64,000 nt of DNA from Candidatus Omnitrophota bacterium (GCA_018817165.1 JAHITY010000114.1:17721-81720), one strand, 5' to 3'; positions 3,870 to 32,852 are shown, counted from the stretch's first letter. Notes: generated by a model not told the origin, from the letters alone. Made by a program: numbers and translations.

Positions 3870-3891
3870 TTAGAATGCAGTGTATAGCGAA

Positions 3892-4181: not shown

Positions 4182-4312
4182 GTTGCATCAGCAGGAAAAT
4201 TTGTGTCAGCGTAAAATTTATCGATCATCTTGAGTATTGAGTAGAGCGTTTAGAGTTTGGAAATAGTAATTAGAAATTAGTAATTTATTTTCTGTTTTAT
4301 AAAGGGATTTTT

Positions 4313-5458: not shown

Positions 5459-5484
5459 CAGTAAAGAAATCAGGATGATTTAAT

Positions 5485-6435: not shown

Positions 6436-6440
6436 TTTAA

Positions 6441-8132
6441 ATGTATATATTGGGTGTGTGTGATAGTCAAGATGCGGGAGCCGTGATTATCAACAGTGAA
6501 TCAAATCAAATAACTGCAGTCAATGAAGAACGTTTGAGCCGGATAAAATTGCAGGGAGGTTTTCCTTATTTATCTATTATAGAAGTCTTGCGTTTGAAAA
6601 AAATAAAGCAGGAGCAGATTGATTTAGTAGCTATTGCTTCTGATATGACGCCTTGTTTTATCCTTAGATTATTTTCCAAATCCCATGCTCAGCTTAGAGA
6701 TAATAATAAACAATTCAGTTTTTTATTGTCAGTATATATTTTATATCAGGTTTTAGCCGAAAAACTTATTCTACCTAAGAAAATAGAGTCATTTCTAAGC
6801 CGTATGGTTTTAGGCTATAAATTGAGCAAGCTAGGGATTAATGCTAAAGTAATCACCGTTGATCATCACATTGCGCATGCTTATGCAGCATATGGTATTT
6901 GCGGATTTGATAATGCTTTAATCATTACTATTGATGGTTTGGGTGATGGAGTGTCTTTTAGTGTTAATATAGGTAAGGAGGGGATTATTAAGCCGGTTTT
7001 TAGACAAAGTGCCTTAAATGATATAACACTTTATTATTCCCGATTGACGGAGTTCCTTGGATTTAAGCCGATTCAAGATGAGGGCAAGGTTATGGGTTTA
7101 GCAGCTTATTGCGGGAAATATTCCGCTTTGGATCAAGCAGCAAAGCTTTTGCGAGTAAGCAATGGAAGATTTAAACTAAAAAATCCTTTTGTAAGAAATA
7201 AAAAGATATTTAAGCAGCTAAAAACAATAAGTAAGCAGGAAGTTGCGGCATCTTTTCAAAAACATGCCGAAGATTGTATTGAGCAGATTATTGCTTATTG
7301 GGTTAAGAAAACAAATATCTCAAAAGTAGTGCTTGGCGGCGGGTTCTTTGCCAATATAAAGGTTAATCAGAAAATAGCTAATATTAAGCAAGTTGATAAA
7401 ATATATGTTTGTCCTCATATGGGAGACGGCGGATTAGCCTTGGGTGCTGCATTTTTTGCAAAAAAACAAAAACCATTTAAAGCAAAAGATGTATTTTTCG
7501 GGTCTGAATACACAAATAAGCAGATAAGTGAAGTGCTTGAATCGCAGAAAATTGAATATCAAATAAGTAATTCAATACACAATGAAATTGCTGAATTATT
7601 AAGCAGAGGGAAGATTATTGCCAGATTTAACAAAGCTATGGAATTTGGACCGAGAGCTCTTGGTAATCGTTCGATTATTGCTGCTGCAGTAGATAATAGT
7701 ATTCAGAATTCTTTAAATATTAAACTGGGTAGAGATGATTTTATGCCTTTTGGCCCGAGTATTCTCAGTGAATATAAAGCTAAATGTTGTGAGCAGACTG
7801 ATAAAGCAGCCTATGCAGGGGAATTTATGAATATTAGTTTTAAAGCTACTGATTATTTTAAAAAAAAATGTCCCGGGGCTGTGCATAAAGATGGGACAAC
7901 ACGGCCTCAATTTGTTTCAATGAATTCTAATAATGATTTTTATAATATTCTAAATGAATATAGAAAAATAACAAATATCCCAGCATTATTAAATACTAGT
8001 TTTAATATACACGAAGAGCCTATTGTTTGTAGCCCTAAAGATGCGATAAGAAGTTTTCAGAAAAGCAGAATAGATTACTTGGCAATAGGGGATTTTTTAA
8101 TAAAGAGGAGGGATGATGAAGAAAAACAATAA
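6441..8132 (+). CDS. NodU/CmcH-family carbamoyltransferase.
   Basis: N-terminal ILGV...DAGAVII...NEERLSRIK and VDHHIAHAYAAYGICGFD motifs matching the TobZ/NodU carbamoyltransferase family; ~560 aa. Confidence 0.75.
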   Translation: MYILGVCDSQDAGAVIINSESNQITAVNEERLSRIKLQGGFPYLSIIEVLRLKKIKQEQIDLVAIASDMTPCFILRLFSKSHAQLRDNNKQFSFLLSVYILYQVLAEKLILPKKIESFLSRMVLGYKLSKLGINAKVITVDHHIAHAYAAYGICGFDNALIITIDGLGDGVSFSVNIGKEGIIKPVFRQSALNDITLYYSRLTEFLGFKPIQDEGKVMGLAAYCGKYSALDQAAKLLRVSNGRFKLKNPFVRNKKIFKQLKTISKQEVAASFQKHAEDCIEQIIAYWVKKTNISKVVLGGGFFANIKVNQKIANIKQVDKIYVCPHMGDGGLALGAAFFAKKQKPFKAKDVFFGSEYTNKQISEVLESQKIEYQISNSIHNEIAELLSRGKIIARFNKAMEFGPRALGNRSIIAAAVDNSIQNSLNIKLGRDDFMPFGPSILSEYKAKCCEQTDKAAYAGEFMNISFKATDYFKKKCPGAVHKDGTTRPQFVSMNSNNDFYNILNEYRKITNIPALLNTSFNIHEEPIVCSPKDAIRSFQKSRIDYLAIGDFLIKRRDDEEKQ

Positions 8133-8889
8133 ACTTTTAAGAATTATCCAATGGTTTTTTGAAGAGGATGTAAGTGAAGAATCGGTTAGCAATGATGATA
8201 CTATTGAAATAGGATTGATTCAGATAGTCTTAATTATCCTGATAACTGCAATATTTTCAGTCTGGATATTTTTTGAGCCGATAAAGGGATTCTTCAATCG
8301 TCCTCAGCTTTCAACCAGTGAATATATTGAAAAGCATATTGAGAAGAATTATTTTATTATTAAAAATCCGCTGAAAAATAGCGATTTTAGCCAAGGACTA
8401 GAACACTGGGCAAGCTCTGACTGCGGCTTGCTTTTTCCTGATTCAAAAAGCGTTGCTAGTATTGATAAGCATGATTATCATTCTGCTCCTAGCAGTCTAA
8501 AAATAAAATGTATTTCTCCGGCAAACCGATATCATTACTCAAAAAATGAGAAAAATAAGGTATTAGATAATCCTTATAGCTTTAAGCAAACAGAATGCTG
8601 GATGGGGATTCTGCCGGGAAGAGAGATAAATGCTAGTATTTGGTATAAAGGAGATATTGTAAAATTTACAATAAATTATATTAATAAATCAGGGGAATGG
8701 AATAATTTAGACAGTGTTTTTGGCTCAGTTACAAACCAATGGTCACAGCTTAAGATAAATAAAAAAGTTCCTTTAGATGCAAGAGCAATAATGATTGAAA
8801 TCACTGTAAATAAGGCTGAGAACAGCCCCTTACCGGTAGTGTGGATAGATGACATTAACTTAAAAACTGCCAATTTTGAAGAAAAATAA
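8113..8889 (+). CDS. N-terminally membrane-anchored protein with a CBM4/9-like (carbohydrate-binding-module-like) domain. Paralog of 22363..23139.
   Basis: Single N-terminal TM helix; NSDFSQGLEHW start pattern resembling CBM_4_9 domains; clear paralogy with 22363..23139 (HSAP.SL+I+...WYKG...DFTI...). Confidence 0.4.
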   Translation: MMKKNNKLLRIIQWFFEEDVSEESVSNDDTIEIGLIQIVLIILITAIFSVWIFFEPIKGFFNRPQLSTSEYIEKHIEKNYFIIKNPLKNSDFSQGLEHWASSDCGLLFPDSKSVASIDKHDYHSAPSSLKIKCISPANRYHYSKNEKNKVLDNPYSFKQTECWMGILPGREINASIWYKGDIVKFTINYINKSGEWNNLDSVFGSVTNQWSQLKINKKVPLDARAIMIEITVNKAENSPLPVVWIDDINLKTANFEEK

Positions 8890-10517
8890 TGAATTTAAAA
8901 AAAATAAAATATATATCTTTAGGTTTATTTGCTTGTTTAGTTATTTTTCATATTGCAAACAATCTCTTTTTTTTAGCAAGAAATCCTTTGCCTGAGGGAA
9001 AGGATAGTTATGCTCATATAACCGCGTTTTCTAATTTTAAACAGATTATAGAAAACATTCAAAATAATCCTTTTTTTAGAAGTGAAAAAAGTTTGGTTTA
9101 CAATCTTGTATTTGTAGTTATTGATTACCCGCCATTGTTTTACATGAGTGCTTATTTGATAAATCTTCTATTAGGAAGCTTTCTGCTCAATGCTGTTTTA
9201 TTGACCAATACTTTTTATATGATTATTTTACTGCTCAGTGTTTATTTTATTGCCAATAGAATAAACCCAATAGCTGCTATTATTAGTGCTTTTGTATGTA
9301 GTATGTATCCTATTGTGTTTATAGCGTCTCGTCATTTCAGCCTTGAACTTGCTATTGCATCGATTGCGGCTTTAAGTGTTTTATTATTAATTAAAACAGA
9401 TTGTTTTTTAGATAGAAAAAACTCATTTTATTTAGGGGTTTGTTTAGGGTTAGGAATGCTTATAAAGCAGACATTTATAATTTATGTAGGCGGACCTTTA
9501 ATTTTCTATGTTTGGACAAGCTTAATTGCCGAACAACCAGTTTCGGCTAAGAATAAGAAAAAAGTTAATATAACTCTTTGTTTGCTGATAGGGGTTCTTA
9601 TTAGTTTAATATTTTACTATAATAAGGCAGTTTATTTTAATATTTTAAACAGAGCTGGGTTTATTGGTGCAGTAAATAGTGCTAATTTATTTTCTTTAGA
9701 GCATATTACGTATTATTTTCGTATATTGCCTCAGACTATTGGTTATTTTTTCTTATTGGTTCTGGTTGGTTGTTTATTTTATTTAAGAAATATAAAAGCT
9801 GAAATTAGAACAGTTTTAGGTTTATGGTTATTAGTTCCGCTTGTTTTTTTCACATTCGTGAAACTTAAATATGGTGAATATACAATTGCTTATTTACCGG
9901 CATTGAGTTTAATCAGCGGAATAGTAATATCACAGATAAGTAAAAAGACTATCCGTGTTTTAGTAATTGCTAGTATGATCTTGATAGGGGGCCTTAATTA
10001 TTATTTACTTTCTTTTAATATTGTTAGCAATTTTTATTCGACGTATTATTTACCTGTTCCTGATGTTGAATTAGCTTATTCAGAAACTACAATTAAAACA
10101 CCAGATAAACTTTTAGAAGATATTGCCTTTAGTAATTCAAAAATTGGAATTTTTTATGATACAGATCCTAATACTTTAATTTTTCCATCATATTTCATTA
10201 GGTCTGTGGGTATTAATCCTAAAAAAAACGCACAAATAGTTGAGTTTTATTTTTCTCCGGACATATTTTTTCATGTTTTGGATGACTTTGATATAATGTT
10301 TTTTATTACGCACTCCGAAGAATCATGGATAACAGAACAAAGCTTTAATCAGTTAATCTGTGAAATAAATGATAAACAAATGAATCTATTGCAAATTAAA
10401 CAGGCTGATATAATAAGGCTTATTAATTTTGTTGGTAAGTTTGCAAAACCCGATATGATAATTTTTGACAAGCCAAATAAGCAGGAAAAAATATATATTT
10501 ACAAAAGGAATAAATAA
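8889..10517 (+). CDS. Multi-pass membrane protein, GT-C superfamily glycosyltransferase-like (ArnT/PMT-like).
   Basis: At least 10 predicted hydrophobic helices in the N-terminal two thirds and a soluble C-terminal domain; start codon overlaps the stop of 8113..8889. Confidence 0.5.
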   Translation: MNLKKIKYISLGLFACLVIFHIANNLFFLARNPLPEGKDSYAHITAFSNFKQIIENIQNNPFFRSEKSLVYNLVFVVIDYPPLFYMSAYLINLLLGSFLLNAVLLTNTFYMIILLLSVYFIANRINPIAAIISAFVCSMYPIVFIASRHFSLELAIASIAALSVLLLIKTDCFLDRKNSFYLGVCLGLGMLIKQTFIIYVGGPLIFYVWTSLIAEQPVSAKNKKKVNITLCLLIGVLISLIFYYNKAVYFNILNRAGFIGAVNSANLFSLEHITYYFRILPQTIGYFFLLVLVGCLFYLRNIKAEIRTVLGLWLLVPLVFFTFVKLKYGEYTIAYLPALSLISGIVISQISKKTIRVLVIASMILIGGLNYYLLSFNIVSNFYSTYYLPVPDVELAYSETTIKTPDKLLEDIAFSNSKIGIFYDTDPNTLIFPSYFIRSVGINPKKNAQIVEFYFSPDIFFHVLDDFDIMFFITHSEESWITEQSFNQLICEINDKQMNLLQIKQADIIRLINFVGKFAKPDMIIFDKPNKQEKIYIYKRNK

Positions 10518-11579
10518 ATGCTGCGCAGTATGTGTTCACAATTAAATAATTTAATTTCTTTTCGTAAACTTTTTTCCTTTAGACAAGTTATGTCTGGGGT
10601 GAGATATTTTCCGGCTACAGTAAATTTTTTGATAACTAATAAGTGTAATCTAAATTGTAGTATTTGCTCTGCTCATGGAATGCTTGATAATAGCCAGCAG
10701 CTCTCGGCTAAGGAGATTGTGGGATTTATTAAAAAAATTTCCAGATATAAACCAGCTATTTTTTTTGGGGGAGGAGAGCCTTTTATTCGGAAAGATATTT
10801 TTGAAATTCTTGCTGCAACTAAAAAAAATGGTTTAAAGTACGGCATTGTTACAAATGGAACAATGCTTGATGAGCATAATATAAAAAGATTATTTGATTT
10901 TGCGCCTGAAATAATAATTTTCTCAGTACATGGCGATGAGATAAGTCATGATGCTAAAACAGGGAAAAAGGGGGCATTTGTAGCTTTATATAAAGCAATT
11001 AAACTTGCAGTTAAACATAAAAAGAAAACAGATATACTGCTTAATGCAGTTATAACTCAAGATAATTATTTAGATCTGGAAAAAATAGTAGTGCTGGGAA
11101 AAGAATTGGGTGTAAATAGGGTAAGGTTTGAGAATCTTATTTTTCTTTCTGAGCTGGAATATGCGCAACATTTAGCAGGGTGTGTAGGTGTTTTAAAAGA
11201 AAAACAAGCTGAAATGACTACTTATATTAAAGATATCAATTGTCCAAAAATTGGTCCTGATATGCAAAAAGAGGTTTTACGTTTAAAACAAAAGTATGGT
11301 AGTTTTGTGATATTTAAGCCTTATATGACTGATCATGAACGATCAAGATGGTTTGAACAGGGGTTTAAGTTTAATCGAAAGTGTATGTTTGTTAGGCATT
11401 CAGTATTTATAAGACCAAATGGAGATATTATTCCTTGTCAGTTTTTTTCTAATTATAAATTAGGCAATATTAAAACAGATGATCTTTCTCGTGTTTGGCA
11501 GGAGGAGAAGCGCAAAAAATTCACTAAAATCTTAAACAAGGAAATTTTACCTGGATGCATGAGGTGTTGTAAATTATGA
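10518..11579 (+). CDS. Radical SAM/SPASM-domain protein.
   Basis: TNKCNLNCSICSAHG (Cx3Cx2C), GGGEPFIRKD, C-terminal Cys-rich SPASM/twitch region (CPKIG...CMFVRH...IPCQFF...LPGCMRCC). Confidence 0.75.
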   Translation: MLRSMCSQLNNLISFRKLFSFRQVMSGVRYFPATVNFLITNKCNLNCSICSAHGMLDNSQQLSAKEIVGFIKKISRYKPAIFFGGGEPFIRKDIFEILAATKKNGLKYGIVTNGTMLDEHNIKRLFDFAPEIIIFSVHGDEISHDAKTGKKGAFVALYKAIKLAVKHKKKTDILLNAVITQDNYLDLEKIVVLGKELGVNRVRFENLIFLSELEYAQHLAGCVGVLKEKQAEMTTYIKDINCPKIGPDMQKEVLRLKQKYGSFVIFKPYMTDHERSRWFEQGFKFNRKCMFVRHSVFIRPNGDIIPCQFFSNYKLGNIKTDDLSRVWQEEKRKKFTKILNKEILPGCMRCCKL

Positions 11580-12133
11580 GAATTATTTTAGACAAATGTT
11601 ATGATATTATAAAGAAGTTTGCATTAAAAAATATTAAACTAAAAGATGATTCATACGTTTTAGATATAGGATGCGGTTTAAAGGGTAATTTCTGGGGATT
11701 TAAGCCAAAAGCTTATTTTGGTTTGGATAATAATCCTAAAATCACAGAAAAAAACACTAAAAATAATAATGGAAATTATAAATTATATGATGTTTGTCAA
11801 GGTTTGCCGTTTGCCAATAAGTCATTTGATTATGTTATTTCTGTAAGTTTTTTTCATCATCTTAGCGATGAGCAGGCAAAGCAGCTTATTATTCAGATCA
11901 AAAGGACATTAAAAGCAAATGGCAGAGCGATTATGGTTGATGGAGTTTTTCCACAATCAAAATCGAATATTATTGGATACTTATTAAGATTTTTTGATAG
12001 GGGCAGGTATGTGCGTAAGGCTAGTGACTTTGAGGCATTGTTTGTAGATGAATTTAATATTGAAGAAAAATATGGTTTTACTGAGAAAATTTTTGCTTAT
12101 ACTGCTTTACTGCTGAGGCCTAAAAATGATTAA
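11576..12133 (+). CDS. Class I SAM-dependent methyltransferase (small).
   Basis: Motif I VLDIGCGLKGNF and acidic motif II region GLDNNPK; 185 aa; ATGA overlap with the upstream gene. Confidence 0.55.
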   Translation: MRIILDKCYDIIKKFALKNIKLKDDSYVLDIGCGLKGNFWGFKPKAYFGLDNNPKITEKNTKNNNGNYKLYDVCQGLPFANKSFDYVISVSFFHHLSDEQAKQLIIQIKRTLKANGRAIMVDGVFPQSKSNIIGYLLRFFDRGRYVRKASDFEALFVDEFNIEEKYGFTEKIFAYTALLLRPKND

Positions 12134-13532
12134 ATATAATTCAAAATATCTTAACCAGAATCAAATAATCAAATTTATTTTTTATGCTATATTATTTTTA
12201 GGCACTTTTATTCGCTTATTTGTTCTTCTTAATTCAGACAATTTTCATGGTATTGCTGCGGGAAAAGTTGTTTGTGCTCAGAGTTTAATTAAACATCCTA
12301 ATTATCTTGAATCCTGGATTATTCCGGCGCATGGCCCCATACATCTTTATCTTATTGCTTTTGTTTGTAAACTGTTTAATGACCCTATTTTTGCTCCGCG
12401 ATTAATTAGTTTGTTTGCCGGAGTGGGTTTTATTGTGGTTTACTATAATTTTATTAAAAATGCTTTTGATCAGAAAATTGCATTGCTCAGCAGCTTTATG
12501 ATTGCATTTTTTCCTTTGCATATTGTTCATAGTGTACTCTCAACAGCTGAGGCTAGTTTTTTATTCTTGCTCTGCTGTGGACTTTTTTTTATGGAACAGT
12601 ATTTAACTAATCAAAAAGATAGATATCTAATTTATTCCGCTATATTCATTAGTATGGCTAGTATGTGTAGGTTTGAAGGAGGGCTTTTTATATTATTTGT
12701 AAGTTTATTCCTGATTAAACAGTATAAAAAAATATTTATGTTTATTGGTATTGCCTCAATATTACCTTTATTGTGGATGTTTTTTAATTATCAATATTCC
12801 GGAAGTTTTTTGCTCTTTCTTTCGGCGAGTGATTCGATTGTGCACACTGAATTTGAATACCTTCGCAGTTTAGGAGAGAATATTACATTTTTTAGAAAAT
12901 TATTTTATTGGCCAAGTCAATTATTAGCTTATTTCGGATGGCCCATATTTTTAATCGGTTTGTTTGGTTTGATGAAAATTGGATATAAAAAGAATAAAAG
13001 AATATTGTTTCTATTTTTAATGATAATTATTTTTTTTATGTTTAAAACACTGAAGGAGGAATTAGCCATGCAGCCGCGTTACGGGCTTAGTTTAGCGATT
13101 CTTTTTATTCCTTTTTTTTCTTTGGCTTTTGTGGAGATATTAAGAAAAGTAAATTCCAAAAGAAGAGCAGTGGTTTTATTAATTTTGATAATTTATGTTT
13201 TGCTAAGAGGAACTTATTTGACCGCTGTATGTATTCCGAAGACTCCGGATTGGCTGGTTTATACCGGGGCGTTCTTGCATGATAATCTTGAAGGTGATAA
13301 TGCTGTTTATATTGATTCCGAAGAGGATAATTATAAAGATCCTTTAAAATTAGAAATAAATACAGATATTGATAGGTTTATTGGTAAAAACCATTTTTTT
13401 CGGCATCTGGAATTGATGGACCCTTTGGGGCGAAAACGTTTGAAATATGTAGTTTTAATATCTAAAAGAAAAATGCAAAATCTAAAACAAGTGTTTAAGG
13501 CAGGGGACTGTAAAGTATATGAAGTTGAATAA
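12126..13532 (+). CDS. GT-C family membrane glycosyltransferase-like protein (ArnT/PMT-like). Tandem paralog of 13519..15036.
   Basis: Polytopic membrane protein; conserved blocks shared with 13519 (PAHGPIHLYLIA / PVHPPGHILFVI; ASMCRFEGG / ASMCRYEGL; MQPRYGLSL / LQPRYGITL). Confidence 0.55.
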   Translation: MIKYNSKYLNQNQIIKFIFYAILFLGTFIRLFVLLNSDNFHGIAAGKVVCAQSLIKHPNYLESWIIPAHGPIHLYLIAFVCKLFNDPIFAPRLISLFAGVGFIVVYYNFIKNAFDQKIALLSSFMIAFFPLHIVHSVLSTAEASFLFLLCCGLFFMEQYLTNQKDRYLIYSAIFISMASMCRFEGGLFILFVSLFLIKQYKKIFMFIGIASILPLLWMFFNYQYSGSFLLFLSASDSIVHTEFEYLRSLGENITFFRKLFYWPSQLLAYFGWPIFLIGLFGLMKIGYKKNKRILFLFLMIIIFFMFKTLKEELAMQPRYGLSLAILFIPFFSLAFVEILRKVNSKRRAVVLLILIIYVLLRGTYLTAVCIPKTPDWLVYTGAFLHDNLEGDNAVYIDSEEDNYKDPLKLEINTDIDRFIGKNHFFRHLELMDPLGRKRLKYVVLISKRKMQNLKQVFKAGDCKVYEVE

Positions 13533-15036
13533 TAATTCAGATCAGACATTAAATTCAATATTATCTAAGCATAAGGAATATTTATTAGTCGGATTAATTT
13601 TATTATTGGCTTTTATTATTCGTATGGGGATTTTGCTTCATACTGTTGATTTCCATGGGATATCAAATGGGAGGATACTGGAAGCGCAAATGATTTTAAA
13701 TGACCCTTTAAATCTTAAATTATGGGTGCCAGTACATCCGCCGGGTCATATCCTGTTTGTCATAATCGGGATAAAACTATTTGGGTCTTTTTTTGCCATT
13801 TCTAGAATTATCAGTCTTGGCTTTGGAATGATGACAATATTAATTTCTTATTTATATTTAAAACAAGTGTTTAATAAGCAAATCGCACTTTTTTCTATTT
13901 TAGCTATTAGCTTATATTCAGCGCATATTGTATATAGTATTATCGGGACATCAGAGACAATGTTCCATTTCTTTTTATTCCTTAGTCTTTATCTTTATGA
14001 ACAGTTCAAACGGAAAAGTAATTTATCTTTATTGTATCTGTTTGGTCTGAGTGTTGGGTTTGCCAGTATGTGTCGTTACGAGGGATTGCTGCTTATTCCA
14101 TTTTATCTTTTTTTTCTGAGAAAGAGCAAGATAAATATAATGGGCTTTATATCTTTTGCTTTATTATTTCCGTTGGCCTGGATGTTAGTAAATTATTTAG
14201 CTTTTGGTAGTCCTATCGAATTCTTAGCAAGTAATAACTTTATAGTGCCTCAGCAGATTAATTGGATCAGAGACAATGGATTTAATATAGATTTTATTTA
14301 TAAGTTTTTATTTTGGCCAAAGGCGATGATTTCCACATTAGGAATAGCTGTTTTTGTTTTTGGTTGGCTAGGACTTATTTATGCTCAATTAAATCGCCAG
14401 GCCAATGTCTTGGGAGGTTTGTTTATAGTATTATTTGCAATTTTCGTGATTAATACTTTGAGAGAAATGCTTTATTTGCAACCGCGTTATGGGATAACCT
14501 TAGGGCTTATGCTGATACCGTTTAGTGTATATTGTTTTATGAAAGTAATTGAGAAAATCGATTCGAGAATTCCCCGATGGACTGTATTAATTCTATTGTG
14601 GACAATGATTATCCCTATTGGAAGTCAAGTTTTAGGAAGTTCATTGTTTGCTCCGGAATTCGCTAAAAATACAGCTTTTTATTTGAAAGAAAATCGAAAT
14701 TTGGGATCAAATATTATGATCGACCATTGTGGAGATGAAAAGTTTAGAGAACCGATAAAGGTTTTAAGTAGAATTGATCCGATCTATTTTAGCTTAATGC
14801 CTGTAATGATAGATGAGAATAATGATTATGTAATTGATCAAGAAAAGTTTTTTAAAATGATTGAAAACAATAATATAGAAACATTAGTGTATTCACCTTA
14901 TGGTGATTTAGCTGGTATTTTAAAACTAAATATTGAAAATATTCCACAGCAAAGACGGAATTTTTTATTTACACTTAAACATAAAAATGCACCGTATTAT
15001 ATTTATGATATTAAGAAAGTTAAAAATGATAAATAA
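13519..15036 (+). CDS. GT-C family membrane glycosyltransferase-like protein. Tandem paralog of 12126..13532.
   Basis: See 12126..13532; 14-nt overlap with the upstream gene. Confidence 0.55.
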   Translation: MKLNNNSDQTLNSILSKHKEYLLVGLILLLAFIIRMGILLHTVDFHGISNGRILEAQMILNDPLNLKLWVPVHPPGHILFVIIGIKLFGSFFAISRIISLGFGMMTILISYLYLKQVFNKQIALFSILAISLYSAHIVYSIIGTSETMFHFFLFLSLYLYEQFKRKSNLSLLYLFGLSVGFASMCRYEGLLLIPFYLFFLRKSKINIMGFISFALLFPLAWMLVNYLAFGSPIEFLASNNFIVPQQINWIRDNGFNIDFIYKFLFWPKAMISTLGIAVFVFGWLGLIYAQLNRQANVLGGLFIVLFAIFVINTLREMLYLQPRYGITLGLMLIPFSVYCFMKVIEKIDSRIPRWTVLILLWTMIIPIGSQVLGSSLFAPEFAKNTAFYLKENRNLGSNIMIDHCGDEKFREPIKVLSRIDPIYFSLMPVMIDENNDYVIDQEKFFKMIENNNIETLVYSPYGDLAGILKLNIENIPQQRRNFLFTLKHKNAPYYIYDIKKVKNDK

Positions 15037-16276
15037 AATCTGCAGGGGAACGATTAATTTTACAAGCCCAATGATGATAAATTTCCTGGGGAATTTGGCT
15101 ATAAGCCGTAAGGCAGGTAATGGTCTAATTTTGGATTTTCAAAATCAGTTTGCCGACTATATTAATATTGATCATGCTATTGCTGTTTCTTGTGCAAAGA
15201 CAGCATTGAGTTTGGCATTGCAGGCTTTAGGAGCTAAAGCTGATGATCAGATTATTGTGCCTAGTTATACAGTGACAGAGGTAATTGATGTTATTATAGC
15301 TCAAGGGCTTAAGCCTGTTTTTATTGATATAAGTTTGTGCGATGGTAATATGATTCCTGAATTAATTGAACAAGAAATTACTAAAAGCACAAAATTTATT
15401 TTAATGACACATATGCATGGCAATCCATGTGATATAGATTCTATAATTATGCTGGCTGATAAGCATGGTATTGCGGTGATTGAAGATGCTGCTCAGGCAT
15501 GCGGGGCAGAGTATAAAGATAAAAAAATAGGCTGCTTTGGTAAGATTGCTTATTTTAGCTTTAATATGTTTAAAAATATTAATACATTAGGCGGATCAAT
15601 GCTGGTTACTAATGATTTAAAACTTGCTGATGAAATAAAAAAAATAAGCAGTCACTTTAAGCCAATTTCTAAAATAGAACTGATGAAAAGATTTTTTAAG
15701 GCAATGATCCTTGCTTCTGTTACAAAACCGCCTATATTTCCTTTATTGGTTTATCCTGTTTTAAAATTAATGGGAGTACAGAAGCATAAAAGTATAGATA
15801 AAAAGCTCAAAGTTAAATTATTGAGCAGAAGTAAATTAAAAAAAATTGATAGATTGTTTTCACCAGCACAAGCAGGATTAGGTTTATTACAGCTTAAAAA
15901 ATTGGATAAATTAAATCAGGATAAAATTAATAATGCATTGGTTTTAAATGAAAAGTTATCAACAGTCAAAGATATTGTAATCTGTAAATCTCAAACAGGG
16001 ATTAAGTGTATTTATTTAAACTATGTAATTATGGTTAAAAACCGCCAAGGTCTGATTGATTTCTTATTTGATAAGGGAATAGATATAAGCCCCGGATTTG
16101 TGCAGGCATGCGCTTATATTAGAGAATTTGAACCATTTGCCGCTGATTGTCCGAATAGTTTGGCTCTTGAGCAGGGTAATCTATATTTGCCTATATATCA
16201 TCCACTAAACAGTAAACATATGATTAAAATCGCAGCATTAATCGGGAAATATTATGAGCCGAAAACTAGAACTTAA
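15026..16276 (+). CDS. DegT/DnrJ/EryC1/StrS-family PLP-dependent sugar aminotransferase. Start moved to the ATG at 15026.
   Basis: DHAIAVSCAKTALSLAL..DDQIIVPSYTV...GIAVIEDAAQACGAEY...FSFNMFKNINTLGGSMLVTN (Lys-containing PLP region). The ATG at 15026 overlaps the upstream stop (ATGATAA arrangement), and the 14933 start in the track would overlap the upstream gene by ~100 nt. Confidence 0.75.
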   Translation: MINKICRGTINFTSPMMINFLGNLAISRKAGNGLILDFQNQFADYINIDHAIAVSCAKTALSLALQALGAKADDQIIVPSYTVTEVIDVIIAQGLKPVFIDISLCDGNMIPELIEQEITKSTKFILMTHMHGNPCDIDSIIMLADKHGIAVIEDAAQACGAEYKDKKIGCFGKIAYFSFNMFKNINTLGGSMLVTNDLKLADEIKKISSHFKPISKIELMKRFFKAMILASVTKPPIFPLLVYPVLKLMGVQKHKSIDKKLKVKLLSRSKLKKIDRLFSPAQAGLGLLQLKKLDKLNQDKINNALVLNEKLSTVKDIVICKSQTGIKCIYLNYVIMVKNRQGLIDFLFDKGIDISPGFVQACAYIREFEPFAADCPNSLALEQGNLYLPIYHPLNSKHMIKIAALIGKYYEPKTRT

Positions 16277-17678
16277 TCCTATTTACAGTATTTTATTAAA
16301 GAATCATTTAATTGTCGCAATATGTTTATTTATTGATGCTTTTTTAATAAGGTTTGCCTTTTTAATAAGTTCAGATAATATCTTTGGGCAGGCACCGATG
16401 CTGAATATTATGACTTCTTTGCATGTTTTAACTGATCAGGCTTTGCTTAATAATGTATATTATCAGCAGTTGCCATTTTTCTTGTATAGTATCGCTGGGG
16501 CAGTGAAATTAGGCTCTGAACAGATTCTAAGCCCCAGATTTTTAGTTGCCCTTATTTCTAGTCTTTCATTGATTCCTTATTATTATTTAGTAAAAAAAGT
16601 ATTTAATAGTAAAATTGCATTGTTTTCCGGATTGCTTTTATATAGTTATTATATGCATATTATTGTAAGCATTATTAGTATGCCTGATGCCATATGTATT
16701 GGTTTTTTATTTTTTTGTTTATGGATGTTATTTATTGATAAATATCTTATATCGGCAATATTCTGTCTGATTGCCTGCGGTTATAGTTATCTAGGATGGA
16801 TACTAGTTCCAGTTTTATTTTCATCTATTTTTTTAAAGAAACATAAAACTCTAAAACAAAATCTTTTTAATGGGATTTTATTTTTGAGCATAGCTTGTTT
16901 ATTGCCATTGATATGGACTCAGGTAATTGAGAACAATTATGGGCAAGCCTGGTTATGGTATAAGAATTTTCATAATCCTGATAGTGTGTATACTTTTTTA
17001 TTTCTAGCAGGAAGAAGTATGCAGGGAATATTAAGCGATTTATTTTTAAAGCCAGGATCAATAATATTTTGTCTTAGCTTTATTGGAGTGATTTTTGCTC
17101 CAAATAAAAAAGAGCGATATCCCTATATTTTTTGCATAACTGCAACAATATTAATCCTCAGTGTGCATGTTTTTCGCAAAGAGATATTGATTGTAGACCA
17201 GGGAATCTTATTTATTTGGGCATTGCTTATTCCTTATTTAATTTTTGGTTTATTCTTTGTTTTAAGAAAGTTAAGATTAAACCATAAAGTATACGGATTG
17301 ATTATAGTAAGTATTATATGTAGTGTTTCATTAGTAACTGGATTTTTTCAAAGACCAAAGATTCCTCAATCAGTCACGGAAGTAAGCTGGTGGCTTCAGG
17401 AAAATGCAGATGCTAATTCTTTGATTTATCTCCAAAAACAAGATAAAGGTTATCATAGCGCGATTGTTATGCAAAGCAAATTGCCGCAGAAAAATTTTAG
17501 TTTTTTGGAAGATAATAATTTGCAGAATATTGCGCATATGGATAAAAAACAGTATCTTATACTCCCGGTATCAGAGGTGGAATATATGGATTTAGAGCAA
17601 TGGGAGAGTAAAGATAAGCTTAAAGAATATTTAATATTTATGAAAAATAAAGAAGGCAGCAGGACACAAAGACACTAG
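16254..17678 (+). CDS. Polytopic membrane protein, probable GT-C-like glycosyltransferase.
   Basis: More than 10 hydrophobic helices, loosely similar in architecture to the 12126/13519 proteins; last gene of the operon. Confidence 0.4.
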   Translation: MSRKLELNPIYSILLKNHLIVAICLFIDAFLIRFAFLISSDNIFGQAPMLNIMTSLHVLTDQALLNNVYYQQLPFFLYSIAGAVKLGSEQILSPRFLVALISSLSLIPYYYLVKKVFNSKIALFSGLLLYSYYMHIIVSIISMPDAICIGFLFFCLWMLFIDKYLISAIFCLIACGYSYLGWILVPVLFSSIFLKKHKTLKQNLFNGILFLSIACLLPLIWTQVIENNYGQAWLWYKNFHNPDSVYTFLFLAGRSMQGILSDLFLKPGSIIFCLSFIGVIFAPNKKERYPYIFCITATILILSVHVFRKEILIVDQGILFIWALLIPYLIFGLFFVLRKLRLNHKVYGLIIVSIICSVSLVTGFFQRPKIPQSVTEVSWWLQENADANSLIYLQKQDKGYHSAIVMQSKLPQKNFSFLEDNNLQNIAHMDKKQYLILPVSEVEYMDLEQWESKDKLKEYLIFMKNKEGSRTQRH

Positions 17679-17739
17679 GGCTCAAGGATGAAAAGACGAA
17701 AAAGTAGCGGACACAAGGTTGCAAGCTAAAAGCGATAAA

Positions 17740-17886
17740 CTATAAAGGGCAGGAATAATTATTTAGGCGGGTTTGAAGCCTGATTTTGGTAGGACTGGCA
17801 AAATCAGAGATTCATCCTCGGAGTCCCGCACGATGCGGGACGAGAATGAGCCAAAATGATTGATTCCTGACAGCCTTCGATAAAGT
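17740..17886 (+). ncRNA. Copy B of the conserved ~148-bp structured element (see 4034..4181).
   Basis: Near-identical to 4034..4181; located 129 bp upstream of the GT1 gene at 18015. Confidence 0.45.
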
Positions 17887-18014
17887 GGTTATCAAAACTA
17901 AAACAGTTTGTAAAATTAATAAAGTTGAAAGTTTATAAAGTTTACAGGAATTAGGAATTAGAAAAAGGTAGAAACTAAACGCTAATCGCTATACGCTAAA
18001 AGCTGAACTATAAT

Positions 18015-19106
18015 ATGAAAATAATATTTATTACTCGAGAAAGTAAAGAAATGCCAGCAGTGAGAGTTCGCTGTTACGGGTTTGCCCGGTATCTAAATAA
18101 AGCAGGGATTGAAACAGAGATATTTTCTTTTGCGGATAATTTAGGGGCAAAAAGCGGTAAAGAAGAAGGGCAAATGTCTAGACTAGATAAACTTTTATAT
18201 AACTTAAAGGCGTTTAAATATCTTAAATCAAAAGATACTGTTTTAGTTTTACAGCGTTGTAATTATCACTCGCTTGCGCCGTTATTACTAAACTTGCTAT
18301 TTAAAAGAAAGCTTATTTTGGATTTAGATGATTGGGAAGCAAGGGAAAATATAGAATATCATTTTAATAAAATTCCTAAATCCATAGCATATGTGGCAAT
18401 GAGTTTTATTGCCAGGAGGAGTTGTTTGTGTATTGGCGCAAGCAAATTTTTAGTAAATTTTTTATCCCGGTATAATAAGAATTCAATTTATCTGCCCACA
18501 GGAGTGGATACAGAGATATTTAAGCCCAAAAAGCTGATGATTGAAAAAACTGACCTTGTTTTGTCCTGGATTGGGACTATCCATCGCCGGGATAATGTGG
18601 AAAATCTATGTTTTTTAATTGATTGTTTTATGATTCTAAGCCAGAAAAACTCGGGGATTAAATTGGAAATTATCGGTGCGGGGATTTATGATCAGGAAGT
18701 AAAACAATACATTGCCCAAGTAAACAGCAATTTGATTAAAATCAATGGGTGGATAGCGCCAGAACAAATTCCTGGATATCTTGATAATATAGATATTGGG
18801 GTTATGCCTTTGACTCAAAATACTAAATTCAACCTAGCGAAAAGTCCTACGCGGATGTTTGAGTATATGTCCATGGAAAAACCTTTTATTGCCAGTTGTT
18901 TGGGAGAGGCGCAAAGGGTTATTATCGATGGCCAAAATGGAATGTTGGCAATAACCCAGGATGATTTTGTTGAAAAATTGCAAATTCTGATCAAAGATAA
19001 GAAACTTAGACAGACTATGGGTAAAAAAGCGAGAAAAACAGTATTGGAAAAATACTCTTTGGAAAAAATCTCAAATGATTTGTTAACCTCAGTTAGGGGA
19101 ATATGA
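18015..19106 (+). CDS. Glycosyltransferase family 1.
   Basis: C-terminal GT1 region (FEYMSMEKPFIASCLGEAQRVIIDGQNGML); ~360 aa. Confidence 0.7.
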   Translation: MKIIFITRESKEMPAVRVRCYGFARYLNKAGIETEIFSFADNLGAKSGKEEGQMSRLDKLLYNLKAFKYLKSKDTVLVLQRCNYHSLAPLLLNLLFKRKLILDLDDWEARENIEYHFNKIPKSIAYVAMSFIARRSCLCIGASKFLVNFLSRYNKNSIYLPTGVDTEIFKPKKLMIEKTDLVLSWIGTIHRRDNVENLCFLIDCFMILSQKNSGIKLEIIGAGIYDQEVKQYIAQVNSNLIKINGWIAPEQIPGYLDNIDIGVMPLTQNTKFNLAKSPTRMFEYMSMEKPFIASCLGEAQRVIIDGQNGMLAITQDDFVEKLQILIKDKKLRQTMGKKARKTVLEKYSLEKISNDLLTSVRGI

Positions 19107-20569
19107 AAGTAGTTATTGCTAATTCAATTGGAATTGATAAAAACGGACATTATATAATTCATTCACCAAGCCGATGGTCTGAAGGCGTTAAAGAGAAATC
19201 GCACTGGTTTGCTTATTATCCTTGGGAACTTGCCTATCTGTCTAGTTTACTCAAAAGAGAAACTAATCATGAAGTAAAGCTTATTGATGGATGTTTGATG
19301 AAGCTTAATAAAAAAGATTACTCTGCGTTGATCAAAAATCTAAATCCGGATATTTTGATAATCGAAAGCGCTACGCGAATGATTGATGAAAATTTAGAGT
19401 TGGCTCTAGAGATTAAAAAATCATGCTTAAGTCGAGTTATTTTTGTTGGGCAGCATGCAAGTGCTTTTCCCCAGCAGCTTATTGACCAGGGGGTGGATAA
19501 TGTCTGTATTGGTGAATATGAGTTCACGGTTCTTGAATTGATTCAGAACTCTGATCAAGCACAGATATTAGGGCTTTATCCTAATAAGCGAAGAGACTTA
19601 CTTGAGATAAATTCCTTGCCTTGGCCAGAAGATGATGATGTCAGTCGGATAGATTATGCATGCCCCGGAGAACCCAGTTCTGAATTTAAGGAAATTCAAA
19701 TGTACGCGTCTCGCGGTTGTCCGGGTTCATGTAATTTCTGTGTAGCCAGGCATGTTTATTATAATTGTTCGAATTGGCGTAAGCGTAATATTGATGATAT
19801 TGTTAAAGAGATCGCCTATCTGAAAGAAAAATATCCGCAAATGGAGGGAGTTTTCTTTGATGAAGAAGTGCACAATGGCAATCGGGAATTTATTTTAGAA
19901 TTAAGCAAGGGGATTATAGCCGCCGGGCTGAATAATTTGCATTATGAGGCAATGTGTGATGTGCGCTTCTTAGATGAACAAGTGCTGCGGGCAATGAAAA
20001 ATGCCGGATATTATAAAATAAGAATTGGGATCGAGACGGCAAGTGAAAAAGTTATGCAGGCGATAAATAAGCCAATGGATTTAAACCATATTCAGAATAT
20101 ATTATTAACCGCTAAGAAGATCTGCTTAACCACATACGGAACATTTACTTTTGGCGCTTTTGGCTCGGATTATTCTGAAGATATTAAAACCATTAGGTTT
20201 ATGGAAACATTGATAAAACAGGATCTTTTAGATGGATTACAGCTTTCTATTTGTACTCCTCAGCCGGGAACCCCTTTTTATCAAACAGCCAAAGAGAATA
20301 ATTTATTGCGTGCGCAATCTGATTTTTCTGATTATGATGGGGGTAATTTTGCCATGGTAAGCTATCCAAACTACAATCATAAGCAAATAGAAAATATTAA
20401 ACAGCAAGCTTTGCTTGTCCGTGATCATTTATATCTGATGAAGAAAATTAGAGAACATAATCTTTTAAAATGGACACTAGCAATTCTCAGGCGTTACGGA
20501 TTGTGGGGATTTATTAGAAAAGCCTTTAGAAGATTTTTATTGGAAATAAAATTTTTAAACTTAAAATGA
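19103..20569 (+). CDS. B12-binding domain radical SAM protein.
   Basis: N-terminal B12-binding-like region (YPWELAYLSSLLKRETNHEVKLIDG); SRGCPGSCNFC radical SAM motif; ATGA overlap with the upstream GT1 gene. Confidence 0.8.
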   Translation: MKVVIANSIGIDKNGHYIIHSPSRWSEGVKEKSHWFAYYPWELAYLSSLLKRETNHEVKLIDGCLMKLNKKDYSALIKNLNPDILIIESATRMIDENLELALEIKKSCLSRVIFVGQHASAFPQQLIDQGVDNVCIGEYEFTVLELIQNSDQAQILGLYPNKRRDLLEINSLPWPEDDDVSRIDYACPGEPSSEFKEIQMYASRGCPGSCNFCVARHVYYNCSNWRKRNIDDIVKEIAYLKEKYPQMEGVFFDEEVHNGNREFILELSKGIIAAGLNNLHYEAMCDVRFLDEQVLRAMKNAGYYKIRIGIETASEKVMQAINKPMDLNHIQNILLTAKKICLTTYGTFTFGAFGSDYSEDIKTIRFMETLIKQDLLDGLQLSICTPQPGTPFYQTAKENNLLRAQSDFSDYDGGNFAMVSYPNYNHKQIENIKQQALLVRDHLYLMKKIREHNLLKWTLAILRRYGLWGFIRKAFRRFLLEIKFLNLK

Positions 20570-20761
20570 CACAAAAGCAGCGGATAGCGTATAGCGATTA
20601 GCGGTTAGGGAAAGTGTGATATCCTGAAATAGGTTGACAGAAAACAGAAGGATGAGAGACGATCGCTGCGCTAGGACGATAGAGAAAAAACGGAAACATT
20701 TTTTAATAGCTAATGAAGTAATATTGTACAGTTATTTCTTGTTGTGATTTAGGGATTATTT

Positions 20762-22273
20762 ATGAATTTTTTAAAAAAACATTACATATTTATCAGTTTA
20801 ATCGGGATTTTTCTATTATATATAATTACAGATATTATTATTCTGAATGTTAAAGGAGATTTTCTTCTTTATCAGGAAGCTATAAAAATGGGTGTTTGTT
20901 CTCATTTTTATGAAATATTATCTCAAAGACAATTTTCCCCTTCACCTTACATATATCCGCCTATTTATTTCCTTGTATCGAGTTTTTTATGTGTTATTGC
21001 TGGGCGGTTTAGCTATATAACTTGTGTTTACGCGAATTTTATATATTTAGCCATTTTTTTGAGTTCCTTTTTTCTTTTGGCGAGAAAAATTATAAAAAAT
21101 AATAGTGTGGCATTGCTGGCTGTGTATATATTGTTTATTTTTAATTACGATATCTCGATTTATTCAAGATATTATTCGATGGAGTTTGCCGTAGGAGCAT
21201 TTGTTTGCTTGAGTTTATACTTTTTAATATGCACGGATAATTTTACTAACTTCAAGCGCAGTTTTTTATTTGGGCTTGCTTTTGGGCTAAGCATGTTGAT
21301 TAAGTGGACAGCGTTTATTTATATTTTACCGCCTCTATTGGTTTATATTTGGAATGCACTGGCGGCAGCTCGATCTTCTAAATCAGGATTTAAAACTGTA
21401 TTAATCAATATTGTTGTTTCCTTTTGTATATTCTTAGCTTTGTTTTTATATTGGGTATTGACTTCCCTTGACTTGAATAGGATGTATAACCTTTATTGTA
21501 TTGCAATTACAAAGGAAGCTCAAATATCGGGATTATCTACATATATTGCAGTTTCTTTTACTGCTCTTATGGAATACATTCTTTTTACTAAATTCTTTTT
21601 GCAGGGCAGGTACTTAATTGATTTTTTAAAGGGCAGATTTAGATTTAAAAAATTTCTAATATTTTGGTTATTAGGTCCAATACTTATTTTGTCTTTTGCT
21701 GCTGGAATAACTCGCTCGCGTTATATGATCCCAGTCTTACCGGCACTAGCTTTAATGAGTGCATTGGCTTTTAATAATATCAAGGAGCAAAGGGCGAAGA
21801 GAAATGCTCTTTATTATTTTTTGATTGGAGGCGCATTAATGTTCACGCTAACTTCTTTTTGGGGGAACTATGCTGACGCTGAATATAATCAAAAAGTTCA
21901 TTCAATAAAAGATATGCTTAAAACTATGGAAGATAAGGTGGTAGCCAAAGAAAAAATCCATGTTCTTTACCTGTATACCGATTCTTCACCTAACTTTGAT
22001 TATTTGGTAAAATTGTTCAAGTATTTTTTGGCGCATAATAATTTTAGTAATAGCGAACTTACGATTTCACCTGATGAATTTCTCAGTATAAATATTGATA
22101 GAGCAATAGCGCAGTCAGAATATATACTAATTGTTGATAAAGATCCGCGGGAATTGTTAAAAAAAATCAGCCAATATAATTTAACTTTAGTCTCCAGCAT
22201 AAAGTTAAAAAATGATAATATTGTGGCGATTTTACTGGAGAATCCTTTAGTCGGAGGCGCTAAGATAGACTAA
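20762..22273 (+). CDS. GT-C family polytopic membrane glycosyltransferase-like protein.
   Basis: Many hydrophobic helices over the first ~360 aa, then a soluble C-terminal domain; same gene-neighbourhood logic as 8889..10517 (next to a CBM-like anchor protein). Confidence 0.5.
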   Translation: MNFLKKHYIFISLIGIFLLYIITDIIILNVKGDFLLYQEAIKMGVCSHFYEILSQRQFSPSPYIYPPIYFLVSSFLCVIAGRFSYITCVYANFIYLAIFLSSFFLLARKIIKNNSVALLAVYILFIFNYDISIYSRYYSMEFAVGAFVCLSLYFLICTDNFTNFKRSFLFGLAFGLSMLIKWTAFIYILPPLLVYIWNALAAARSSKSGFKTVLINIVVSFCIFLALFLYWVLTSLDLNRMYNLYCIAITKEAQISGLSTYIAVSFTALMEYILFTKFFLQGRYLIDFLKGRFRFKKFLIFWLLGPILILSFAAGITRSRYMIPVLPALALMSALAFNNIKEQRAKRNALYYFLIGGALMFTLTSFWGNYADAEYNQKVHSIKDMLKTMEDKVVAKEKIHVLYLYTDSSPNFDYLVKLFKYFLAHNNFSNSELTISPDEFLSINIDRAIAQSEYILIVDKDPRELLKKISQYNLTLVSSIKLKNDNIVAILLENPLVGGAKID

Positions 22274-22362
22274 AAATCAATTAACTGCTTTTAGCATAAT
22301 TAGGAATAGTCAGACTTTATAAGCGCAGGCTTAAGCTTAGAATAAAAATTTAGGGGTAGGGA

Positions 22363-23139
22363 ATGAAAAAGATTAGTGCTAAAAAAATCCTAAAGCTGTT
22401 TTTTGAGGAAGAAAAACCTCAGGATAGTAAAGAAACCAGTAATGAAACAAATGAAGTGAAAATTTTGCACTGGCTATTGATTATCGCGATTAGTATATTT
22501 ACTTTGTTTTGGATTATTTATTGTTTTTTTGCTGTTTTTTTAAAATCACCGATATATAATAGCCAAAGTGGTATTAACTCTAAAATCGAGAGAGTTGATT
22601 GGTCAAAGGGTAATGTTTTAAAAAATGGCGATTTTTCTGAAAAATTAAGACATTGGGTTACTTCCGATGGCGGGCAGACATTTAAAGATTCAAAAAGTAA
22701 AGTAAGTCTAGAGGAAGATGATGTTCATTCAGCCCCATATAGTCTGAGGATTAGATCACTCTATCCGACTAATCGATTGCATTATACTAAAAATATGGAG
22801 CAGTATATTATTGGTAATCCTTATGATTTTAAAGAAACCGAACATTGGCTCGGGGTCGAGCCTAGTTCAAAAATCGAGGCATCTTGTTGGTATAAAGGTA
22901 GCGTGATTGACTTTACAATCATTGGTTTGGCTCAAAAAGGCGAATGGATAAATCTGGCAAAAATATCCGGAGAGAGAACTCGGATATGGAAACAATTAAA
23001 AATAGACATAGATATACCGGAAAAAGTAAGAGCTATTTCTGTATTGTTTGTAATTAACCGCGCGCAGGGAAGTCCTTTGCCGGATGTTTTAATCGATGAT
23101 GTAGCGGTATCGATTGTATCTTCGAAAGAGTACATTTAA
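22363..23139 (+). CDS. Membrane-anchored CBM4/9-like domain protein. Paralog of 8113..8889.
   Basis: N-terminal TM helix, NGDFSEKLRHW motif, and conserved blocks shared with 8113..8889. Confidence 0.4.
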   Translation: MKKISAKKILKLFFEEEKPQDSKETSNETNEVKILHWLLIIAISIFTLFWIIYCFFAVFLKSPIYNSQSGINSKIERVDWSKGNVLKNGDFSEKLRHWVTSDGGQTFKDSKSKVSLEEDDVHSAPYSLRIRSLYPTNRLHYTKNMEQYIIGNPYDFKETEHWLGVEPSSKIEASCWYKGSVIDFTIIGLAQKGEWINLAKISGERTRIWKQLKIDIDIPEKVRAISVLFVINRAQGSPLPDVLIDDVAVSIVSSKEYI

Positions 23140-23205
23140 GATTTATTAACAATCAAATAACCTAAATAAATTGTAAATTTCAAGGAAAGATAAAGAGAGG
23201 AACTA

Positions 23206-24708: not shown

Positions 24709-24746
24709 GAGAGAGAGAGGCTTTAGCCCTTAACCAGAAATAAAAT

Positions 24747-25742: not shown

Positions 25743-25772
25743 TTTAATTAATACCTAATTTAAGGATAATCA

Positions 25773-28331: not shown

Positions 28332-28346
28332 AGAAGGATATGAATA

Positions 28347-29351: not shown

Positions 29352-29398
29352 AAGGATATTATAATAAAGTAAGAATAAAAGGTAGAATATAAAGAATA

Positions 29399-30922: not shown

Positions 30923-30939
30923 TATTTAAGGAAAAAGTC

Positions 30940-32829: not shown

Positions 32830-32852
32830 AGCAATTAATCGAAAAATTTATT

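Follow-up and report, generated by a model that had tools for sequence, protein, structure and literature searches.

Membrane glycosyltransferases of the GT-C fold build envelope glycans from lipid-linked donors, and how they recognise their acceptors is poorly understood, the known cases being carbohydrate-binding modules (CBMs) fused to very large enzymes. The CBMs of mycobacterial EmbA, EmbB, EmbC and AftD and of ORF12 bind acceptor polysaccharide (PMC11127046; PMC3044687; bioRxiv 10.1101/2019.12.22.885152); that of ORF12, a GT136 enzyme of Citrobacter youngae, binds the unmodified O-antigen backbone (PMC11127046), and mutants in the CBM of EmbC make less and shorter arabinan (PMC3044687). 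In addition, a preprint argues that mycobacterial GT-Cs depend almost universally on protein partners (bioRxiv 10.64898/2026.07.15.738315). Here we describe a 64,000-nucleotide (nt) stretch of a Candidatus Omnitrophota bacterium (GCA_018817165.1, JAHITY010000114.1:17721-81720; hereafter the window), in which a GT-C gene twice adjoins a gene for a small membrane protein with a predicted CBM-like domain. The small proteins are called S1 and S2, and the adjacent GT-Cs G1 and G2 (Table 1). We propose that S and its adjacent GT-C are a two-gene unit, probably a two-subunit periplasmic glycosyltransferase in which S would bind the acceptor glycan, a proposal, made by analogy with the fused enzymes, that we regard as evenly poised between right and wrong.

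The initial annotation had placed four open reading frames (ORFs) here and read them as one two-gene module duplicated in opposite gene order, and each of these points stands, all four ORFs being on the plus strand. S1 and S2 are 40% identical over 249 residues (E 3e-66) and G1 and G2 26% identical over 447 residues (E 4e-28), similarities far beyond chance, and in an all-against-all BLAST of the proteins encoded in the surrounding glycan-biosynthesis island G1 and G2 are reciprocal best matches among the six GT-Cs of PMT_2 type (genes starting at 8889, 12126, 13519, 16254, 20762 and 29399); of the other four, those starting at 12126, 13519 and 16254 form one group and that at 29399 stands apart. 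S1 precedes G1, whereas G2 precedes S2. The stop codon of S1 overlaps the start codon of G1 (TAATG) and the two genes are translationally coupled, while a spacer of 89 nt separates G2 from S2. A strong AGGAGG site lies upstream of both candidate ATGs of S1, and the database entry identical to S1 has 257 amino acids (aa), which corresponds to a start at the second ATG (8116).

The pairing was followed beyond the window in DNA around S homologues from several branches of the family, with each ORF scored against the S profile and the six window GT-Cs; a locus search with a 13-sequence family alignment gave three genome loci and four metagenome loci. The co-occurrence sample comprised 22 non-redundant S-domain genes, most of them from one phylum and the window's two included, of which 21 were informative, the contig of the other (L015) ending 90 nt past S. 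A GT-C is directly adjacent on the same strand, often with an overlap of a few bases, in 20 of these 21 cases. In all 20 pairs S and the GT-C are separate genes, and the best window match of the adjacent GT-C is always G1, or G2 for S2-type genes. S comes first in 17 pairs; the three in which it follows are that of S2 itself, that of an S2 orthologue (L011/L012) beside a GT-C 73% identical to G2, and a form with pentapeptide repeats (L018). PMT_2 was absent from the ten representative matches of the S profile that were scanned against Pfam.

The pair is also kept in quite different surroundings: beside genes for HSP90 and rubrerythrin in L008, beside NfeD and guanylate cyclase in L010, as a three-gene cassette of S, GT-C and GT2 in L016, and on a contig with a GC content of 0.57 (L018), where S carries a pentapeptide-repeat N-terminus. 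One genome (L002) holds three S-G pairs. Taken together, these results show that the S-G pair is a true conserved module and not a coincidence of the window. The two additional pairs of L002 lie in tandem (L002:3716-7382; S of 256 aa with a GT-C of 360 aa, and S of 233 aa with a GT-C of 363 aa), flanked by the island's GT4 on one side and its ArnC-like GT2 on the other, a position at which the window has none. At L018:1403-4629 (and also in L019) the 449-aa pentapeptide-repeat S-like protein is encoded after a 612-aa PMT_2 GT-C.

The four other GT-Cs of the window have no S beside them, nor does a GT-C of L020 (P0156, 28% identical to G1) that lies among radical SAM genes, and S therefore belongs to one GT-C clade rather than to GT-Cs or radical SAM genes generally. 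The initial annotation had further described each pair as followed by radical SAM genes, which is literally true of both; these genes were nevertheless rejected as part of the module. The adjacency says nothing, because radical SAM proteins are encoded by about 15 of the 38 genes in the island and pairs outside the island lack such a neighbour, and the GT-C of L020 is flanked by radical SAM genes without an S.

Most GT-C partners in the additional pairs are short (327-365 aa) and align only to residues ~17-372 of G1. They end after the last transmembrane (TM) helix and have no soluble domain, so that S would be the sole globular periplasmic domain in these minimal pairs.

S and G have also diversified together. 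Across 14 pairs, the distance matrix of the S sandwiches correlates with that of the G membrane cores (r 0.72, Mantel p ~2e-4), and one division into G1-type, G2-type and short classes fits both proteins. Where a genome has paralogous pairs, S and G are classed concordantly, and species phylogeny alone therefore cannot explain this co-diversification. These observations bear on the idea that S is an independent periplasmic lectin, which retains, hands over or anchors glycan and is merely co-transcribed with the GT-C, without a complex between them. Such a lectin would be expected to have a CBM fold and to be found in a large glycan island, as S is, but it is harder to reconcile with the pairs of L008 and L010, kept outside the island and away from any other glycan genes, with an S subtype that tracks the GT-C subtype, and with the restriction of S to one GT-C clade, and we consider it distinctly improbable.

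Each S has a single hydrophobic helix near its N-terminus, as first described. S1 consists of a basic, amphipathic and then acidic N-terminal tail (KxxxWFFEE), a TM helix at ~35-61, a juxtamembrane segment YIEKHIEKNYF (71-81) and a CBM4/9/16/22-like beta-sandwich at residues ~89-252; in S2 the TM helix lies at ~38-56 and the sandwich at ~88-251. The sandwich opens with NSDFSQGLEHW in S1 and NGDFSEKLRHW in S2, so that the motif N(S/G)DFS..L.HW singled out in the initial annotation is present in both and falls within the invariant core of the family, where N89, F92, H98 and W99 do not vary in the 13-sequence alignment. The same alignment gives a family signature of P-A-N-R-Y-H-Y-S-K, W163, W-Y-K-G, W210, R224-A and D246-D247, and the conserved residues include R139, Y142, K144, W163, Y178, W210 and R224. 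The juxtamembrane Y-I-E-x-x-I-E-K-N-Y-F (71-81 in S1) is as conserved as the sandwich core. The tails of long-type S proteins such as S1 and S2 have in common a K-x-x-x-W/L-F-F-E-E motif followed by an acidic run, and short-type S proteins are without the motif, which would be cytoplasmic if the N-in topology favoured below holds.

The family is rare and unannotated. A word-indexed search of 5.8 billion proteins returned 12 relatives, and a profile search of 1.84 billion cluster representatives returned 126 matches at E<=1e-3, 35 of them at E<=1e-30. About 50 representative clusters are stand-alone proteins of 208-271 aa with the architecture of S, and in 13 (~405-449 aa) pentapeptide repeats at the N-terminus come before a single TM helix and a sandwich like that of S; named homologues all come from metagenome-assembled genomes (MAGs) of Omnitrophota. 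In Pfam S1 has no match and S2 only a below-threshold match to CrtO at E<=0.01, with neither matching CBM_4_9, and NCBIfam holds no family for S and no name for S1, G1 or G2.

The beta-sandwich-like domain postulated in the initial annotation is borne out by an AlphaFold2 (AF2) model of S1 built on the 13-sequence alignment, with a mean predicted local distance difference test (pLDDT) score of 83 and values above 90 for residues 90-250. In the model a short N-terminal helix (7-16) is followed by the long TM helix (35-61), by another short helix (68-75) and by a beta-sandwich of ten strands, which displays the jelly-roll of ~130-170 residues that characterises CBM_4_9-type modules. Foldseek found 199 matches to it in the Protein Data Bank (PDB) at E<=1e-3, the best 50 of which are mostly CBM16, CBM22, CBM4, CBM61 and CBM-like domains of phage tailspikes (TM-score on the target at most 0.79), headed by the CBM16 structure 2zey (E 7.7e-9, TM-score on the target 0.78). 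The best PDB match of the S family profile is CBM4-2 of the Thermotoga laminarinase 16A (1GUI, E 0.0076), and in this alignment a DD end motif is common to S and CBM4-2. When 45 members were scanned singly, CBM_4_9 (PF02018) was the commonest Pfam match, found in 8 of the 45 at E<=1 with a best value of 3.4e-5, and in the distant homologue P0069 a weak CBM_4_9 match overlaps the region aligned to the S profile. An N-x-D-F start with a W about ten residues on is presumably also common to CBM_4_9 and S. The sequence link to CBM_4_9 thus appears weak but specific, and S, as modelled, is a divergent, unannotated branch of the CBM4/9/16/22 jelly-roll superfamily. It resembles those modules in the beta-jelly-roll fold and in weak profile matches, and differs from them by its family-specific invariant residues, its conserved juxtamembrane helix and the lack of an enzyme polypeptide around the domain. 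A CBM in the CAZy definition is a contiguous module inside a carbohydrate-active enzyme, and S, which is encoded by an ORF of its own, from start to stop codon, and is anchored by its own TM helix, falls outside that definition.

The fold also bears on two other roles for S. Some polysaccharide lyases and GH16 enzymes are jelly-rolls, and the invariant H98, R139, Y142, K144 and Y178 could in principle form a catalytic set, in which case S would be a small lyase or hydrolase trimming the glycan. The best 50 Foldseek matches, however, include no catalytic domain of PL7 or GH16 type, the enzymes in the Foldseek list align through an appended CBM or CBM-like domain, and ~165 residues is the size of a CBM, which makes a trimming enzyme the least probable of the roles considered. 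More serious than any other rival is a structural or regulatory subunit of the GT-C, serving its folding, stability, oligomerisation or activation in the manner of the accessory subunits of oligosaccharyltransferase (OST) or of the partners of mycobacterial GT-Cs, with the sandwich used for protein-protein contacts. Strict adjacency and co-diversification are equally explained by such a role, YIExxIEKNYF and the WFFEE of long-type proteins are as conserved as the sandwich core, suggesting protein contacts, and partner dependence has been reported for GT-Cs (bioRxiv 10.64898/2026.07.15.738315). Speaking for carbohydrate binding instead, the nearest structural and sequence relatives of S are true CBMs, and several invariant aromatic and basic residues lie in the sandwich, as expected of a sugar site. 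We judge a purely structural or regulatory role unlikely though worth keeping in view; it is compatible with acceptor binding, and the two roles are not mutually exclusive.

The sandwich most likely lies in the periplasm, with S oriented N-in/C-out, and three features argue that it is on the side where the GT-C would act: signal-anchor architecture, pentapeptide-repeat fusions and secreted distant homologues. Short-type S proteins begin with a basic stretch followed by a hydrophobic segment, which resembles a signal anchor, and in long-type proteins such as S1 and S2 the TM helix is preceded by a basic extreme N-terminus, then the amphipathic K-x-x-x-W-F-F-E-E helix, then an acidic run. Proteins of the ~405-449-aa subfamily start with a pentapeptide-repeat domain of ~200 residues that has no signal peptide; their only TM helix comes next and then the S-like sandwich, which should therefore lie opposite to the cytoplasm. 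Distant homologues of the sandwich are found in giant secreted proteins with beta-helix and Big domains and a cleavable signal peptide or T9SS sorting tail. A possible lipobox in short-type S (a hydrophobic stretch followed by Y-C-K/R) was rejected, the Cys being replaced by Phe in about half of the members.

G1 matches PMT_2 (PF13231) at E 2.5e-7, with 31.5 bits against a gathering score of 26.1; G2 scores below the gathering score (18.7 bits, E 0.0021) and is placed in the family because it is homologous to G1. The AF2 model of G1 (pLDDT 88, predicted TM-score (pTM) 0.89) has ~11 TM helices, with periplasmic helices after TM1, in a TM core of residues 1-375, followed by an alpha/beta domain at ~392-540. 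Its Foldseek matches are STT3, PglB, AglB, ArnT, ALG12/9/3, Pmt4, DPY19, AftA and EmbA/B, and G1 is accordingly modelled as a GT-C fold. The first extracytoplasmic loop, after TM1, carries a motif P-E-G-K-D39-S-x-x-H (PEGKD39SYAH in G1) with a putatively catalytic Asp, D39, that is at least 90% conserved in 20 sequences; the G2 equivalent is K-G-D33, and in two short partners the Asp is offset by two or three residues. Y80-P-P, R148, E153, K193, N227 and W313 are invariant.

The family assignment of G1, whose exact sequence is entered at NCBI as 'MAG: glycosyltransferase family 39 protein [Candidatus Omnitrophica bacterium]', raises the thought that the acceptor could be S, which would then be a membrane glycoprotein carrying O-glycans added by the GT39/PMT-like enzyme encoded beside it, since PMT enzymes glycosylate Ser/Thr of exported proteins. 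Yet the stretch that joins the TM helix to the sandwich is not rich in Ser, Thr or Pro, and it is hard to see why dedicated genes for an enzyme and its substrate would be duplicated as a pair, up to three times in one genome, so that we find this very improbable.

An acceptor-binding subunit is the most economical reading, because known GT-Cs carry fused acceptor-binding CBMs (PMC11127046; PMC3044687). In the mechanism that we envisage, the ArnC-like GT2 encoded upstream of S1 would load a sugar onto polyprenyl phosphate as the donor, which would then be flipped to the periplasmic face of the inner membrane, where the GT-C, with its ArnT/PMT/STT3-like fold, would move the sugar to an acceptor. 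S would be anchored by its one N-terminal TM helix with the CBM4/9-like sandwich beside the GT-C in the periplasm, and the sandwich would bind the acceptor, whether a glycan or the sugar portion of a glycoconjugate, and feed it to or position it at the active site. S would thus act in trans as the fused CBMs of EmbC, AftD and GT136 ORF12 act in cis, and in the minimal pairs it may be the enzyme's only soluble periplasmic domain. The pair was duplicated as a unit and then diverged, so each S would be fitted to the GT-C with which it is paired and probably to an acceptor or step specific to that pair. A more ambitious version, in which a membrane-only core of ~330-365 aa is obligatorily completed by an anchored CBM subunit that sets acceptor choice, with duplication and divergence of pairs (up to three per genome) diversifying a surface glycan that bears many modifications, in Omnitrophota and in some other bacteria, is tentative, and we lean somewhat against it. 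In that version the conserved tail of S, with WFFEE or with pentapeptide repeats, would lie in the cytoplasm and might link steps there to transfer in the periplasm. Nothing speaks for the role of a ruler, which the initial annotation had also put forward for S.

Several points weigh against an acceptor-binding subunit. On the 1.8-kb contig of L013, S is present without a GT-C. Neither S1 nor S2 reaches the curated Pfam threshold of CBM_4_9, so that the PF02018 relationship anticipated in the initial annotation holds as the top Pfam family across the S family and fails for the two window proteins. In long-type S the charges that flank the TM helix are ambiguous, the N-terminal flank being acidic. 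G1 and G2 own a C-terminal alpha/beta domain, and S is therefore not needed there merely to supply a soluble domain. About 20 S-G pairs are too few for inter-protein covariation. Furthermore, co-diversification is imperfect, because the sandwiches of S1 and S2 are 46% identical whereas the membrane cores of G1 and G2 are only 24% identical, a value below the 25-29% identity of the G1 core to the short GT-Cs; either the G2 lineage is fast-evolving, or its S came from an S1-type pair.

Table 1. Features of the S-G pairs and of the surrounding glycan island in the window.
Feature	Position (nt)	Strand	Evidence or remark
Glycan-biosynthesis island, ~52 kb	46..52342	nearly all genes +	
ArnC/GtrB-like GT2	5485..6435	+	Conserved upstream neighbour of S1-G1 pair
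NodU/CmcH-type carbamoyltransferase	6441..8132	+	Carbam_trans_N, Carbam_trans_C; NodU E 8.4e-32
S1, 258-aa single-pass membrane protein	8113..8889	+	ORF, translation, AF2 model
S1 N-terminal tail	8113..8220	+	K-x-x-x-W/L-F-F-E-E, acidic run
S1 beta-sandwich	8377..8868	+	AF2 model
G1, 542-aa GT-C, partner of S1	8889..10517	+	PMT_2, AF2, Foldseek
G1 TM core	8889..10013	+	AF2 model
G1 C-terminal alpha/beta domain	10062..10508	+	AF2 model
SPASM radical SAM, after G1 (island)	10518		Pfam scan
G2, 503-aa GT-C, partner of S2, divergent G1 paralogue	20762..22273	+	Homology to G1
S2, 258-aa S1 paralogue, same architecture	22363..23139	+	ORF, alignment, hydrophobic segment
S2 N-terminal tail	22363..22475	+	K-x-x-x-W/L-F-F-E-E, acidic run
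S2 beta-sandwich	22624..23115	+	
B12-binding radical SAM, after S2 (island)	23206		Pfam scan
195-aa Cys/Trp-rich protein	27744..28331		Signal-like N-terminus, no family
279-aa protein	41251..42090		Signal peptide
616-aa protein	42071..43921		~9 TM helices

The window is a segment of bacterial chromosome of low GC content (0.29-0.39), and directly downstream of the island lies a cell-division and wall (dcw) cluster (mraZ, rsmH, ftsI, murE, murF, mraY, murD, ftsW). Besides the six GT-Cs, the island encodes GT4 and GT2 transferases, a carbamoyltransferase, a methyltransferase, a DegT aminotransferase, an AsnB-like amidotransferase, an epimerase and a Wzy_C/O-antigen-ligase-like protein with TPR repeats. 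Its radical SAM proteins, ~10 of the B12-binding type and five smaller radical SAM/SPASM proteins, occur at a density unusual for a glycan cluster. Synteny with other Omnitrophota MAGs (L001, L002 and L014) covers the 5' part of the island, which begins with radical SAM genes and extends up to and including the fourth GT-C and a GT4. Where other Omnitrophota have the pair within this island, the gene order is GT4, ArnC-like GT2, carbamoyltransferase, S, G, SPASM radical SAM, methyltransferase, GT-C, GT-C, DegT, GT-C, GT4 and B12 radical SAM.

Two neighbours of the S1-G1 pair recur in these MAGs. The ArnC-like GT2 matches the Und-P-Ara4FN transferase (ArnC) model NF007986 along its full length (E 1.6e-68, a score short of the equivalog cut-off), and PgfS is matched as well, for which reason it is a plausible polyprenyl-phosphate sugar synthase supplying a lipid-linked donor. 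It occupies the equivalent position in L001, L002 and L014, and in L016 a 315-aa GT2 follows the minimal pair. The carbamoyltransferase gene stands directly upstream of S1 and overlaps its start; it is syntenic in L001, L002 and L014 and is conserved beside the S1-type pair only. Of the parts of a three-component periplasmic glycosylation system of GtrA/GtrB/GtrC type (polyprenyl-phosphate sugar synthase, GT-C and small flippase), the island has a synthase-like GT2 and a GT-C, and a Pfam scan of island ORFs of at least 80 aa found no flippase of the GtrA, MATE or SMR families.

A second exported/polytopic pair is formed by the 279-aa protein, the gene for which overlaps the start of that for the 616-aa protein; neither has a Pfam or NCBIfam family. 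The 195-aa Cys/Trp-rich protein is encoded between DUF362 and a radical SAM gene. All three were ruled out as hidden relatives of S or G, hhalign giving probabilities below 1%.

A GT-C core of ~350 aa and an anchored CBM of ~230 aa make the split system a small, tractable model, to which L016 adds the donor synthase, and one usable for the study of GT-C acceptor recognition and for the engineering of specificity by subunit swapping. The proposal is also the first functional hypothesis for an unannotated family whose named members come nearly all from uncultivated Omnitrophota.

Compared with EmbA/B/C, AftD and ORF12, the S-G system is alike in having a polytopic GT-C, in the use of a lipid-linked donor, which is probable for G, and in a beta-sandwich CBM that in S is likewise probably periplasmic, and with three-component systems it has in common a probable, ArnC/GtrB-like donor synthase encoded nearby. 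In the former enzymes the CBM is fused, whereas S is a separate product with its own TM anchor, encoded before or after the GT-C; G, moreover, belongs to a PMT_2/GT39-like sequence family and its minimal forms are ~330-365 aa. Because its CBM is a separate anchored polypeptide, the S-G system is not of the fused CBM-GT-C architecture. BcsB of bacterial cellulose synthase (BcsA-BcsB) has carbohydrate-binding jelly-roll domains and guides the glycan, and it is much larger than S, anchored at its C-terminus and in contact with the emerging nascent chain of BcsA, a processive GT2 synthase that uses cytoplasmic UDP-glucose. S is like BcsB in being a single-TM-anchored, probably periplasmic partner of a membrane glycosyltransferase (PMC8892547, in part), and BcsA-BcsB and S-G have no sequence relation. 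The mycobacterial LpqW-MptB, LpqZ-AftA, FecB-AftB and Pmt partners likewise include a separately encoded extracytoplasmic or membrane partner of a GT-C (bioRxiv 10.64898/2026.07.15.738315; PMC12802301, in part); by their description LpqW, LpqZ and FecB are set apart as lipoproteins, whereas S is a signal-anchored protein with a CBM4/9-like sandwich whose gene nearly always adjoins that of its GT-C. Searches of the open-access literature turned up no report of a GT-C that is partnered by a CBM encoded in a gene of its own. The advance is incremental, since that a CBM helps a GT-C is already established; the system adds to this a split architecture, GT-C cores of very small size, a strict pairing of the two genes and the S family itself.

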